NCBI GenBank assembly: GCA_965221955.1 | Contig: CBDCTA010000029.1 | Location: forward strand, 32,001-96,000 | Length of the DNA: 64,000 nt | Source: Gammaproteobacteria bacterium | Lineage (GTDB): Bacteria; Pseudomonadota; Gammaproteobacteria; UBA4575 | Direction of reading: 5' to 3' | In this document: piece after piece, positions 35,714 through 39,078 of the stretch | Numbering within the stretch: position 1 is the first letter of the stretch | Layout of the letters: every line of letters begins with the position of its first letter | The notes under the pieces: generated by a model | Seen by the model: the letters and a program-made list of their open reading frames with translations, nothing else | Told to the model about the DNA's origin: nothing | Database searches by the model: none | Program-made: the position numbers and the translations under genes

Positions 35714-36892
35714 ATGCTTAATGGACTAATTACTTTACCTTGGTGGGGCTACATTGTAGTCACACTAGTTCTTACTCACATCACCATTGTCTCTGTCACG
35801 CTATATCTGCATCGTTGCCAAGCTCATTGTGCACTAGACCTACATCCTCTGGTATCACACTTTTTTCGTTTTTGGTTGTGGGCGACTACAGGTATGGTAA
35901 CTAAAGAATGGGTGGCAATTCATCGCAAACATCACGCGAAAACAGAAACTGAGGATGATCCGCATAGCCCGCATACAAAAGGTATTGCAAAAGTTTTTTG
36001 GCAAGGCGCAGAGCTTTATCAAGAAGAAGCCAAAAATATGGAGACTATACAGAAATATGGTCACGGTACTCCAGATGATTGGCTAGAACGAAATTTATAT
36101 TCACGTTATAGCTTTATTGGTCTTAGTATTAGCTTTGTTTTAAATGTCATTTTATTTGGGCCTATTGGTTTGACTATTTGGGCAGTCCAAATGATTTGGA
36201 TACCATTATTTGCGGCAGGAGTGATTAATGGAATTGGTCATTACTGGGGCTATCGGAATTTTGAAACCGAAGATGGTTCAACCAATGTTATTAATCTTGG
36301 ATTTATTATTGGCGGAGAAGAGTTACACAACAATCATCATGCTTATCCAAGTTCTGCAAAGTTTTCGAGCAAATGGTGGGAAATTGATCTAGGCTGGTTT
36401 TATATTCAATTATTAAGTTTATTTGGTTTAGCAAAAGTTCGCAGACGTGCACCAAAGCCAATGCGCTTAATAAATAAAGACATTATTGATTTAGAAACTG
36501 CGAAAGCAATGGTGTCTAGTCAATTACATGTGATGGCCGAGTATGCACAAAAAGTTACTTTGCCGACTTTTCATGCCGAGCTACCCAATTTTGAAGATCG
36601 ATATAAAAAACTGGTGAGCCAAATGCGCACTGCATTAATACGTGAAGATAGCCGTATGAAGCCTTTGCATCGTGAACACTTGCAAGAACTATTACAAAAT
36701 AGTGAAGCATTGCATACTGTTTATGAATTTCGTCGTAAGCTACAAGCGCTTTGGAAAGAGACCCATGCCAGTCATGAACGCATGATTCAGGCCATTATCG
36801 AGTGGTGTAAAGAAGCCGAGGCGACCGGAATTAAAGTGCTAGAGGACTTTGCGCAGAGCTTACGAGGGTACGCATTACAGTCAGCGGTTTGA
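35714..36892 (+). CDS. desA: Delta-9 fatty acid desaturase (DesA-like)
   Basis: His boxes HRCQAH, HRKHH, HNNHH; helical C-terminal extension typical of proteobacterial DesA. Confidence 0.9.
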   Translation: MLNGLITLPWWGYIVVTLVLTHITIVSVTLYLHRCQAHCALDLHPLVSHFFRFWLWATTGMVTKEWVAIHRKHHAKTETEDDPHSPHTKGIAKVFWQGAELYQEEAKNMETIQKYGHGTPDDWLERNLYSRYSFIGLSISFVLNVILFGPIGLTIWAVQMIWIPLFAAGVINGIGHYWGYRNFETEDGSTNVINLGFIIGGEELHNNHHAYPSSAKFSSKWWEIDLGWFYIQLLSLFGLAKVRRRAPKPMRLINKDIIDLETAKAMVSSQLHVMAEYAQKVTLPTFHAELPNFEDRYKKLVSQMRTALIREDSRMKPLHREHLQELLQNSEALHTVYEFRRKLQALWKETHASHERMIQAIIEWCKEAEATGIKVLEDFAQSLRGYALQSAV

Positions 36893-36956
36893 ATCTTTTT
36901 TATTTCTGGCAAGAAGTGAACGTTCAATTCACTAAATCATAGTCATCAAGTTAGTT

Positions 36957-37200
36957 GTTCGTTTTCTTTGCTTGTTCAAAGAAAACGAACCAAAAGAAAA
37001 GTGTTCTTGTAAGATTTAAAATATCAACATTAATACATTAATTACACGTCGTTCCCACCAACTTGCTCTTCGAGTACGTTCGTAATATCTAACAACCTTG
37101 GTTGGCATGATGATGTCATCCAGGCACAACATGCCTAAATCAACCATCCTTGGCTGATTTACCTGCAGTTGTTTCGAGTTTACTCACCAAGTTGAACGGG
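36957..37200 (-). repeat. Structured non-coding element (left flank of cassette array)
   Basis: Perfect 14-bp hairpin 36957-36990; long-range stem 37054-37065/37188-37200; internal hairpins with GGA loops on the minus strand. Confidence 0.65.
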
Positions 37201-37217
37201 ATTCAGAAGTGCTTTGA

Positions 37218-37245
37218 ATGCCTGCTTTCGGCCAATAGCGGACAT
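37218..37245 (+). repeat. 28-bp palindromic site R1
   Basis: ATGCCTGCTTT-CGGCCA-ATAGCGGACAT. Confidence 0.8.
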
Positions 37246-37253
37246 TTAAAACT

Positions 37254-37712
37254 TTAAGAGAATAAAGCCGCAATTGATTGAAGCAATACATCAAAAGCCA
37301 CAATTGCACCGACATCCCTCCTCATCCCATCACTTTGCTTTATTTGATAGTCTCTAGAAGAATATGGCTTTTGCAAATTTGGCATTACATAATTTAATTC
37401 ACCTTTGTCGAAATAAACCCCACAACAGAATTCACAAAAATCTAATTCAATTCCACTAACCATTACAATATTTAGAGGTTTTGTATCACATAGTGGGCAA
37501 TTTCTAGTATCAGACAGATTTTGATTATCTTTAGAATATTGAACTAATTCGTCAATTTTGATTTTACTTTTCTGTGTTTCAATAAGCCTGGAAACACTAA
37601 CGCCACTAAGCCAAACTCCTTTACAGTTCTTGCATTCCTTAATAATTGTTGTATCTACTGGATAGCTAACTGATTTTGTATCCATATTGAATTTACAACT
37701 TGGACAATTCAT
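37254..37712 (-). CDS. Tandem zf-TFIIB zinc-ribbon protein (cassette 1)
   Basis: CPSC...CKNCKGVWL and CPLC...LDFCEFCCGVYFDKGEL. Confidence 0.82.
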   Translation of the reverse strand: MNCPSCKFNMDTKSVSYPVDTTIIKECKNCKGVWLSGVSVSRLIETQKSKIKIDELVQYSKDNQNLSDTRNCPLCDTKPLNIVMVSGIELDFCEFCCGVYFDKGELNYVMPNLQKPYSSRDYQIKQSDGMRRDVGAIVAFDVLLQSIAALFS

Positions 37713-37736
37713 CTTATCAATATTACTTATCTGTTA

Positions 37737-37764
37737 ATGTCCGCTTTGGGTCGTTAGCGTCCGT
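37737..37764 (+). repeat. 28-bp palindromic site R2
   Basis: ATGTCCGCTTT-GGGTCG-TTAGCGTCCGT. Confidence 0.8.
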
Positions 37765-37783
37765 TAAATTTTATGAAGTCGCT

Positions 37784-38019
37784 TCATTGTGTATTGTTCC
37801 CACTAAGTCTCCTTCCTATACGGATCAGAATAAAGCCAATTACAAACCCAATCCCACCAATCGTTACAATAGTTACTAGTTCTCCAACTCCCTCACGACC
37901 ACCCGTACCCTGATTGCACCCATTAAATATATCGCTCCAAAACCAAGTCCAATAGTGCCTACAGCAAATACTAACAATGCACCACTACCAATAAAGATAA
38001 TGCAAAATAGCTTTTTCAT
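37784..38019 (-). pseudogene. Small two-TM membrane protein (cassette 2), frameshifted near 37914
   Basis: MKKLFCIIFIGSGALLVFAVGTIGLGFGAIYLMGA then, after a one-base shift, NQGTGGREGVGELVTIVTIGGIGFVIGFILIRIGRRLSGNNTQ*. Confidence 0.6.
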
Positions 38020-38044
38020 GATTAGTGTAAATTTTTACTATCTA

Positions 38045-38061
38045 ATATGCGCTTTGGGACA
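38045..38061 (+). repeat. Left half-site R3 (degenerate)
   Basis: ATATGCGCTTT-GGGACA versus ATGTCCGCTTT-GGGTCG; right arm absent. Confidence 0.55.
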
Positions 38062-38164
38062 TTTGATTGGCATAATTAATCCTTATTACTTTGATTAATT
38101 GCAATATCTTGAAGACCGCTATATGAGTTGATAGTGTAACTATTAACAGGGAGCCATAAATAAG

Positions 38165-38199
38165 AAGGCCGGTTGCTTAGTGGGTGATTGGCCTTTTTA
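38165..38199 (+). terminator. Terminator-like hairpin inside the array
   Basis: AAGGCCGGTTGC...GTGATTGGCCTT followed by a T run. Confidence 0.45.
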
Positions 38200-38220
38200 T
38201 ATATAAACAATTAATTATCA

Positions 38221-38239
38221 TTCGGCCAATAGCGGTCAT
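38221..38239 (+). repeat. Right half-site R4
   Basis: TT-CGGCCA-ATAGCGGTCAT, matching R1 at 18 of these 19 nt; left arm absent. Confidence 0.75.
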
Positions 38240-38242
38240 AAA

Positions 38243-38681
38243 CTAATTAAGTTTCATCATATCTAAAAAGCCAAGCTGCTTCATTGAAGTATAGTTGTCC
38301 CACTCTACCCATACCTCTACTATAATCCCGTCTTCAATTCGATACATGGCTAAATATTCAAAATCCACATCTTTATGTGAAATTGGATAAGGCCCCATTT
38401 CACCAAGTTGGGTTCCTTTAAATCTATGGCGTTGCAGCAACTTTATTTCCTTCTGCAATTAAATCTAAAATTTGATCTTTAAATTTTGGAAAAATTTTAT
38501 GTTGCGTACGCAAAAACTGAATTAAATCACCTCGGCACCTAACAACAGGTTCGCCAGCAGCAAAGCTATGTCGAATGAATCCATCAGATAAAAGATTATC
38601 AAGCCGGTCCCAGTTGTACGAGTTGATAACATCAGTATATTCGCGAACTAATGCCTTGTTATGCTCGATGTTGTTATCCAT
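38243..38681 (-). pseudogene. SnoaL-like ester cyclase (cassette 3), 1-nt insertion near 38432
   Basis: NKALVREY...DLIAEGNKVAA joins RHRFKGTQLGEMG...YRIEDGIIVEVWVEWD if one A is removed. Confidence 0.8.
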
Positions 38682-38724
38682 ATTTAAAAACTAGCAAATA
38701 AGCTTGAATTTTAGCGAAGCCTTC

Positions 38725-38752
38725 ATGTCCGCTTTGGGTCGAAAGCGGACAT
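38725..38752 (+). repeat. 28-bp palindromic site R5 (perfect arms)
   Basis: ATGTCCGCTTT-GGGTCG-AAAGCGGACAT. Confidence 0.85.
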
Positions 38753-38779
38753 TATAAACCAAATCATCTATCTCTTAAT

Positions 38780-39005
38780 CGGGCATTACATCACGCTGAG
38801 AAGCGCAAGGTATTTTCAGACCAAGGCGAGCGCTGCTTGAGCGTAGCGAGTTTGCGAAGCCGTTGAAAATATCGAGCATTCGAGGTTCGAATAGCAAGTA
38901 AATGATGCTTCACAATCTGCTCAGTTATTTGCGATCTCGTGATGTTGAGCGCAATGATTTTGGGTACTTTTGGCGAAACAAAAGTACCTTGCTCTCTAAG
39001 AGCAA
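38780..39005 (+). repeat. Structured non-coding element (right flank of cassette array)
   Basis: Closing stem ACATCACG 38788-38795 / CGTGATGT 38938-38945; internal CTGCTTGAGCGTAGCGAGTT; terminal hairpin TTTTG-GGTACTTTTG-GCGAAA-CAAAAGTACC. Confidence 0.65.
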
Positions 39006-39078
39006 GTGTTGAATAAAAGAATAGGAACTTATGGAGAGAGCGAAAAAGTACTCAGTGGTACTTATGGATACAAAATAA

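Follow-up and report, generated by a model that had tools for sequence, protein, structure and literature searches.

Paired 28-bp palindromic sites border small gene modules in a gammaproteobacterial genome and may form a cassette-like system

A 64-kb stretch of a gammaproteobacterial genome of the UBA4575 lineage (contig CBDCTA010000029.1 of assembly GCA_965221955.1, positions 32,001 to 96,000; hereafter the window) carries, in the spacer between the convergent genes desA and rpmG, three small genes bordered by 28-bp palindromic sites. We found that these sites belong to a genome-wide family of two types, A and B, which share their arms, differ in an asymmetric centre and bracket small co-oriented genes at many intergenic places, where gene content changes at the sites themselves. 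Comparison between genomes supports reading these genes as cassettes, as far as sequences can tell. Our leading explanation, tentative and falling somewhat short of probable, is that the 28-mers are the borders of small mobile gene modules moved by conservative recombination of like sites through a trans-acting enzyme. It is doubtful, and a larger claim, that they represent a new class of gene-cassette system, in which promoter-equipped single-gene modules bounded by two 11-6-11 palindromes occupy dozens of places in Alpha- and Gammaproteobacteria and are served by XerC/XerD acting on non-dif sites, or by an unrecognised recombinase family, with no integron integrase (IntI).

Results and discussion

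The array between desA and rpmG

Three full 28-mers lie in the window in the same orientation, each with 11-bp inverted arms around a 6-bp centre (positions are those of the window). R1 (37218-37245, plus strand; ATGCCTGCTTTCGGCCAATAGCGGACAT) is a B-type site with centre CGGCCA and one mismatch to the B 24-mer; it closes cassette 1 on the 3' side and the array at its downstream end, and lies 8 nt from the stop of open reading frame (ORF) 1. R2 (37737-37764, plus strand; ATGTCCGCTTTGGGTCGTTAGCGTCCGT) is an A-type site with centre GGGTCG and three mismatches to the A 24-mer, lies 24 nt upstream of the ORF1 start and has no B partner after it. R5 (38725-38752, plus strand; ATGTCCGCTTTGGGTCGAAAGCGGACAT), a perfect 11-6-11 palindrome and an exact A-type match, marks the upstream end of the array, 43 nt from the start of ORF3. 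A degenerate pattern of the arms (up to 3 mismatches) matches these three positions alone in the 64 kb, while shuffled versions of the window gave a mean of 0.10 matches and none of 100 shuffles reached three. The initial annotation, made from the letters of this stretch, had listed five sites; the remaining two proved to be remnants, neither of which was matched in a 24-mer scan at up to 5 mismatches. Read from the sequence, R3 (38045..38066, plus strand) is a decayed A site that keeps the left arm and GGG, the rest being deleted, and R4 (38221..38244, plus strand) a decayed B site with the CGGCCA centre, the right arm and a degenerate left arm. The pair resembles an A-linker-B unit that has been broken and lengthened to 176 bp, compared with an intact spacing of 59-83 bp.

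The three small minus-strand genes described between these sites are indeed present, two of them in frameshifted form. Cassette gene 1 (37254-37712, minus strand) encodes a protein of 152 amino acids with two zinc-ribbon motifs (Zn_ribbon_TFIIB, PF13453, E = 1.5e-13). Cassette gene 2 (37780..38019, minus strand), for which no Pfam family was matched, corresponds to a small two-helix membrane-like protein and is considered frameshifted because the second hydrophobic helix sits in another frame than the annotated ORF (37876-38019, 47 amino acids). Cassette gene 3 (38243-38681, minus strand) is SnoaL-like, with one frameshift giving ORFs 38424-38681 and 38243-38458, whose products match PF07366 at positions 2-73 (E = 1.5e-7) and 71-126 (E = 4.8e-13) respectively. 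Given these frameshifts, two of the three cassettes are decaying or the assembly contains indel errors. Distances of 3-19 nt had been reported from stops to sites; besides the 8 nt of ORF1, the shifted frame of gene 2 ends about 19 nt from R2 and the stop of gene 3 abuts R4. The AT-richness ascribed to the array is mild (GC content of 0.357 over 37217-38753 versus 0.40 for the whole window).

A genome-wide family of sites and the anatomy of the module

The genome that contains the window (G000; a draft assembly of 2.69 Mb in 29 contigs, denoted by C numbers, 96.6% complete with 4.3% contamination) has 164 matches to the arm pattern. Of these, 84 are A sites and 75-81 are B sites, the latter number varying with the type given to sites that fit both templates; the placement and orientation counts below use 159 scored sites (84 A and 75 B). 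The consensus sequences (ATGTCCGCTTTGGGTCGTTAGCAGTCAT for A and ATGTCCGCTTTCGGCCAATAGCGGACAT for B) share the arms ATGTCCGCTTT and its complement, conserved at 80-100%, and differ in the asymmetric centre, GGGTCG in A and CGGCCA in B. Although G000 is 89% coding, only 16 of the 159 sites lie inside ORFs. They form 45 clusters, the largest with 23, 23, 10, 9 and 8 sites, so that what had been taken for one integron-like array is instead one of about 45 dispersed loci of A/B-bounded modules that seem to have a promoter-like leader.

The bracketing of co-oriented ORFs seen in the window holds across the genome. With sites read in their own orientation, 56 of 67 B sites have a minus-strand gene after them, whose stop is a median of 14 nt away, and 62 of 76 A sites have one before them, with a median distance of 31.5 nt to its start. 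Of the 26 clusters that have two or more sites, 19 run from a B site at the start to an A site at the end, and about ten are plain B-gene-A pairs. Among neighbouring sites, gene-sized transitions from B to A are the most frequent (50), followed by adjacent A to B (26), A to A (15), B to B (11) and gene-sized A to B (6). These distances, the cluster order and the transitions define the unit as A-ORF-B in the direction of the gene, and arrays as such units joined by a linker. In site orientation, A is followed by B after 59-83 bp at 27 places (73 bp at 12 and 83 bp at eight of them, with a 59-bp class as well), and the linker, which includes TTGATTCCAACC, is conserved.

Directly upstream of A, in gene direction and at a fixed place, we detected a -10-like hexamer (TAAAAT, CAAAAT, TAATAT or TATAAT) at 50 of 68 sites, preceded at 30 of the 68 by a -35-like hexamer 16-18 nt away, most commonly TTGGAA at 17 nt. 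Control searches for the promoter motif gave 1/68 in the other orientation of A and 0/61 and 8/61 in the two orientations of B. To judge from these motifs, each junction probably carries a promoter for the next gene. The cargo of the arrays consists of small accessory genes, e.g. those for GNAT, OsmC, globin and DUF proteins. The truncated-globin family PF01152 has eight members in or adjoining seven different G000 site clusters, and a small protein recurring beside six clusters is, from its sequence start, presumably DsrC/TusE-like.

In full units (107-117 nt), A pairs with B to give a single long, bulged hairpin (z = -3.5 to -5.0). Such a unit is an imperfect inverted repeat of attC- or REPIN-like topology, with an outer stem, a partly unpaired centre, an inner stem and a variable loop (REPIN, repetitive extragenic palindromic (REP) doublet forming a hairpin). 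The initial annotation had called the sites too short for attC, which is right for the single 28-mer and wrong for arrays, with their units of about 100 bases. As single-stranded DNA by itself, R5 folds at -11.1 kcal/mol (z = -6.65), and no good fold was obtained for R1 (z = -1.05) or R2 (z = -0.35). Among 67 distinct units we found no compensatory change between the arms, and self-pairing of A reaches only 5.8 of 9 positions; as a hairpin signal, the arm/centre pattern would be a conserved stem devoid of covariation, and recognition by a protein therefore fits better than a pure hairpin signal. No Rfam family matches the sites.

Gain and loss of modules at the sites

The desA-rpmG spacer was compared with that of 14 relatives of the same family in which both genes were found, and none has a site there (up to 5 mismatches). 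The spacer is 14-210 bp long and site-free in 13 of them, and the fourteenth carries an unrelated 4.3-kb site-free insert, so cassette content at this place, predicted to vary, differs from that of all 14. Window positions 36893-39078 have no counterpart in the 10 relatives aligned, homology ending at the desA stop (~36861-36901) and resuming at the rpmG stop. To judge from its ORF starts, the palindrome-free insert (G003, C51:7493-11802, locus L121) appears to encode an amidase/nitrilase-like protein and a CobW-like GTPase. Insertions of more than one kind make this spacer a hot spot.

Breakpoints at the sites themselves were found at a second locus. Contigs C14 and C23 hold two versions of the xerD-RDD...lptG locus with flanks 99% identical, which we read as two co-assembled strains because of the contamination of 4.3%. 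C14 has an additional two-gene cassette flanked by B sites on both sides, and three cassettes in the place of about 17 in C23. All four breakpoints (C23 10824-10848, 12315 and 23272) are a few nt at most from an A or B site. A 735-bp cassette at C5:775-1509 recurs at C26:69668-70382 with 86% identity from the B site through the A site and with unrelated flanks, one of them tRNA-like by reading. Further afield, 15 of 30 other family genomes contain, at scattered loci, matches to single cassettes of the C23 array (65-87% identity). Homologues of the zinc-ribbon gene 1 occur in three of 56 family genomes, that of G010 being inside another array, between A sites.

Distribution across genomes

Sites with up to 2 mismatches are present in 30 of the 56 family genomes. 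Of the 14 genomes of the genus, 13 have 30-183 sites, as do genomes of three other genera, and counts elsewhere are low or zero. Outside the family, exact 24-25-mers were found in records named Sphingomonas sp. ASV193, Lysobacter dokdonensis DS-58, Caulobacteraceae, Xanthobacteraceae, Kordiimonadaceae, Nitrospirota and others, the genomes of these carriers having a GC content of 54-69%. Two alphaproteobacterial metagenome-assembled genomes have 160 and 111 arm-pattern matches, with centres GGGTCA and GTGCCA; the centre in Sphingomonas is mostly GGGTGG, and a third centre, ACCCCC, occurs in viral contigs. The architecture extends to these genomes: at 17 high-GC loci B-gene-A was counted 13 times versus six for A-gene-B, and all six adjacent pairs are A then B. 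Constant arms around variable centres would be the pattern expected of a recombinase core site. The full unit had no match in a plasmid collection (72,556 plasmid records) or in a phage collection.

Two observations on single genomes may be added. G013, which alone in its genus lacks A and B sites, encodes an IntI over the cut-off used below (386.9 bits) and has copies of the insertion sequence (IS) IS110, which may reflect replacement of one cassette system by another, or chance. For G019, among the 96 sites listed of a total of 168, the left replichore has 52 plus and 3 minus sites and the right 27 minus and 14 plus.

The search for an enzyme

IntI was searched for with TIGR02249 at a cut-off of 265 bits. 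G000 has none, its best match being XerD (83 bits), and none was found in the four closed carrier genomes (G010, G001, G014 and G019). The cut-off is exceeded in five of 56 family genomes, whose arrays are not linked to A/B sites. IntI is missing from 12 of 13 site-bearing genomes of the genus; the only site-rich genome that encodes it, G015, has an IntI-linked array with other, heterogeneous sites and no A or B site. The attC core boxes RYYYAAC...GTTRRRY were found at the ends of 0/27 units in either orientation, as was bare AAC...GTT (0/27), which agrees with the description of the sites as non-attC. They were also correctly described as non-dif: the canonical dif of G000 (C4:59807; four mismatches to the enterobacterial motif) has arms unlike those of A and B, and the dif sites of G019 and G010 are likewise canonical.

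The HUH transposase of the Y1/RAYT type (REP-associated tyrosine transposase, PF01797), whose co-occurrence with the sites had been suggested, was not found in G000, G010, G014, G019 or G043, with an Escherichia coli control positive, and two copies were found in G001, i.e. in one of six carriers tested. The IS110 transposase occurs in four of 31 family genomes, none of them site-rich. For the IS91 Y2 transposase (PF04986) 0/5 genomes matched, the control genomes being silent too. XerC and XerD are the only recombinases common to all closed carriers. Since the enzyme is neither IntI nor RAYT and XerC/XerD alone are shared, it would be a moonlighting XerC/XerD or a protein missed by the models used. 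In G046, IS110-family genes (C7:820172-820730 and C9:259573-260131) lie about 110 nt from B sites with the last bases replaced (…AGCAATG), which looks like IS insertion into the palindrome.

Three other candidates were rejected. The extra tyrosine integrases of G000, G010, G001, G014 and G019 are not one orthologous group. The xerD gene beside the largest array (C23/C14) sits in a dsbC-xerD-RDD-lptG gene order that is itself conserved; the xerD-lptG locus has no cassette in G001 and G019 and some in G010 and G014, which makes it a shared hot spot. A large serine recombinase, present in G000, G010 and G019 and in nine of 56 family genomes, shows no relation to site counts, the gene being missing from G002 (118 sites), G004 (183) and G015 (97). 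In G000 a large serine recombinase gene belongs to a prophage-like block (C26:85304-90595, locus L164) with a small ORF and terminase-like and ParB-like genes, which is conserved in alphaproteobacterial viral contigs (loci L159 and L160); in two viral contigs the block is flanked on both sides by palindrome clusters in inverted orientation.

A model of module exchange and its weak points

In the explanation that we favour, a module consists, in gene direction, of a leader of about 35-60 bp with a -35/-10-like pair, then an A site, which overlaps the -10, some 30 nt that include a ribosome-binding site, one ORF (sometimes two or three), about 14 nt and a B site. Modules stand alone at many intergenic places or are arranged head to tail, in which case B and the next A are 59-83 bp apart and form the long bulged hairpin. 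The trans-acting enzyme, most likely a tyrosine-type recombinase, would bind the conserved arms, and strand exchange between like centres only (A with A, B with B) would insert, delete and reshuffle modules. The window array, with its three modules, two of them decaying, would have been built in this way in a spacer that is empty in relatives.

Several points weigh against this explanation. No dedicated enzyme was found in the four closed site-bearing genomes; closed G010, with 92 sites, encodes only XerC, XerD and one phage-type integrase that is not orthologous to that of G000. Binding by XerCD has no support in the sequences, dif arms being unlike A/B arms. The initial annotation was right that no recombinase is encoded nearby, and none recurs beside arrays in G000 or at 80 loci of other genomes. 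The A site overlaps the promoter-like -10, so that conservation of the arms could be regulatory. Other repeats (fixed classes of linkers, leader repeats and a repeat, X, described below) are fused to the sites in a REP-like manner that recalls bacterial interspersed mosaic elements (BIMEs), and such repeats need no cassette mechanism. The haplotypes of C14 and C23 are deduced from a draft assembly with the contamination given above, and breakpoints at direct repeats are also what homologous recombination leaves. Finally, parts of the stretch occur in three public read runs, as short contigs, and neither an excised circle, which had been predicted, nor an alternative junction was seen in them; apparent joints between R1, R2 and R5 in reads have sides of 21-29 letters on the repeat itself and therefore come from other copies. 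A metagenome scan with the end of desA gave no match.

Alternative explanations

The strongest competitor, which we hold to be unlikely, is that the sites are repeats like REP/BIME or neisserial intergenic mosaic elements (NIMEs) with a host function, bound by a conserved host protein, between which cassettes differ passively. A would then be an operator or promoter and B a roadblock or mRNA 3' end, and recombination through RecA or slippage, with transformation, would require no dedicated recombinase, homologous recombination at repeats taking the place of the site-specific recombination by a tyrosine recombinase proposed above. The extragenic position of 143 of the 159 sites agrees with this, as do the alternation of two palindrome types with linkers of discrete lengths (83, 73 and 59 bp), the mosaic with further repeat families, the promoter-like motif fused to A at 50 of 68 sites and the adjacency of the G046 IS110 copies to truncated B sites. 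IS110 elements are known to target REP and attC. The failure to find an enzyme also counts in its favour, and homologous deletion could have left the direct repeats at all indel borders. However, 24-28 bp of identity make a poor RecA substrate, and the modules sit in spacers that are repeat-free in 14 relatives. Passive repeats would not be expected to be identical across classes, in genomes of 60-69% GC, and the centre varies by type and lineage while the arms remain fixed.

It is improbable that the modules lie inside non-autonomous transposon-like elements, whose ends would be the repeat X (TGTGAG...) plus the adjacent palindrome, with a putative DDE-type transposase acting in trans or lost, and A and B serving as targets or parts of the ends. 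X has 38 copies in G000 (e.g. C23:23349, C14:4213, C29:132277, C29:609593 and C22:24050), each starting with TGTGAG and continuing with two hairpins with ATGGAT loops and then CAGATTAAAGTTAGGTGA; it may be a non-autonomous transposon end or a small RNA. Its two ATGGAT loops suggested TwoAYGGAY RNA, a candidate set aside when Rfam gave no match to X. In 21 of the 38 copies X lies directly 5' of an A or B site (site at 67-116 nt from the X start), and several single B...A modules are flanked by X in inverted orientation. A further feature, in 13 of the 38 copies, is an incomplete site ahead of X: three quarters of it are present and the break has a fixed position (...CCCAAAG| or ...GGCCAAT|), which looks like insertion into the site. 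Such repeat mosaics recall BIMEs and neisserial mosaic elements, and they keep a transposon-like route open for single modules. On the other side, the window contains no copy of X at up to 7 mismatches, the internal junctions of arrays have no X, and no target duplication was defined.

We regard as very improbable that the A-linker-B units are REPINs or hairpin ends of the IS200/IS605 type, moved as single-stranded DNA by a Y1 HUH transposase (RAYT/TnpA). The inverted palindromes 59-83 bp apart that fold as one hairpin would suit such a mechanism, and so would the tendency of site orientation in G019 to follow the replichores among the sites listed, a pattern which co-orientation of genes with replication explains equally well. 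PF01797, however, was found in G001 only and in none of the other five carriers. Least probable of all, units that are divergent attC sites, with loci that are clusters of attC sites lacking integron integrases (CALINs) and an integrase in trans or lost, would account for the topology, the small accessory cargo and the IntI of some relatives but meet with the lack of core boxes, the IntI-adjacent array of G015 with no A/B sites, and the missing IntI in 12 of 13 site-bearing genus genomes and all four closed carriers.

Other features of the locus

Several further elements surround the array. Just after the desA stop lies an intergenic repeat of about 100 bp (36896..36999, no strand assigned), unrelated to the sites, which blastn against the same genome found again at C5:51965-52067 (89%) and C18:126370-126455 (87%); it belongs to the 2.19-kb stretch missing in relatives. 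One public read run has very high depth over 36964-37054, which suggests that a repeat common in that community lies there. Directly outside R1, a two-hairpin element (37046..37208, minus strand) scored 31.3 bits (E = 0.022) with the Rfam model of TwoAYGGAY RNA in cmscan, below the gathering score of 43; its loops are AAGGAU and CUGGAU, and the match is to be taken as a lead only. Between R3 and R4, positions 38150-38195 hold a GC-rich hairpin with T runs on both sides (GGCCGGTT...GATTGGCC), which resembles a bidirectional terminator that has been inserted into the decayed unit. The terminator scan used did not list this hairpin, because its loop exceeds the length which that scan accepts.

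At the upstream end, a promoter-like element (38751..38778, minus strand; TTAAGA, 16 nt, TATAAT, with 10 of 12 consensus positions) reads into R5 and gene 3, its second hexamer overlapping the outer AT of R5. Between R5 and the rpmG terminator there is a 'leader' repeat (38760..39048, no strand assigned) with blastn copies at C29:464094-464306, C2:219980-220205, C17:56071-56167 and C18:29348-29441 of G000; it adjoins A sites at two of these other loci (C29:464315 and C2:220228). A terminator-like hairpin follows rpmG (38988..39006, minus strand), and the cassettes are therefore probably not expressed by simple read-through of the rpmBG operon.

Comparison with known systems

The site family fails a defining test of each known system with which we compared it. 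Ten site sub-sequences had no match in print in the literature searched, which did not cover supplements, and a keyword search returned papers on integrons, pdif and resistance only, none of them fitting.

By the definition given in a passage of PMC3337134, a REPIN is made of two palindromes in inverted orientation that form one hairpin. The sites resemble REP, BIME and REPIN sequences as high-copy extragenic palindromes of two types, arranged in inverted pairs with linkers of fixed classes and a doublet hairpin, and IS110-family elements adjoin truncated sites in one relative. They differ from the REP-RAYT association in that RAYT was not found in five of six carriers tested and in that the palindromes delimit exchangeable genes. 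REP families are lineage-specific, whereas the same sequence is shared here across classes.

With the XerCD sites dif and pdif, the latter on Acinetobacter plasmids, the family shares the 11-6-11 geometry over 28 bp, the bracketing of mobile genes and a recombinase encoded elsewhere. Its arms, however, are unlike those of the genome's own dif, and both arms of a site are alike, as in a homodimer-type site. pdif modules have inverted sites, whereas the sites of an array here all point the same way and are chromosomal, with no match among the plasmid records searched. The neisserial mosaic, in which dRS3 elements flank RS units, likewise uses short palindromes as joints where the gene content of strains differs; it is distinct in sequence and host range, the joints described here bracket promoter-equipped ORFs, and no IS110-type enzyme was found in site-rich genomes.

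If an enzyme acts on the sites, it would be a new job for XerCD or a new recombinase, of interest for the study of mobile elements and as a source of small orthogonal recombination sites; if none does, REP-like repeats would organise the gain and loss of genes one by one, which could be tested in site-carrying isolates (Lysobacter dokdonensis DS-58 and Sphingomonas sp. ASV193). The system would be invisible to integron-finding software, so that cassette pools in marine and soil metagenomes may be under-counted.

Integrons are the textbook bacterial means of collecting and reshuffling single genes and are defined by IntI and attC. Like integrons and CALINs, the loci described here hold small accessory genes, singly and mostly co-oriented in arrays, each junction is an imperfect inverted repeat of about 100 bases made of two 'simple sites', genes are gained and lost at the repeats, and arrays occur with no neighbouring integrase. 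In contrast to integrons, the AAC/GTT core boxes are lacking and most carriers have no IntI; a genome has about 45 loci here versus one platform, a single module is delimited by a half-unit at either end (B and A) and not by one whole site, and the promoter-like element at each junction means that the cassettes do not look promoterless. With the same array anatomy and kind of cargo, and with other sites, no IntI, many platforms, a seemingly built-in promoter and hosts in distant classes, the system looks like a parallel solution to integrons.

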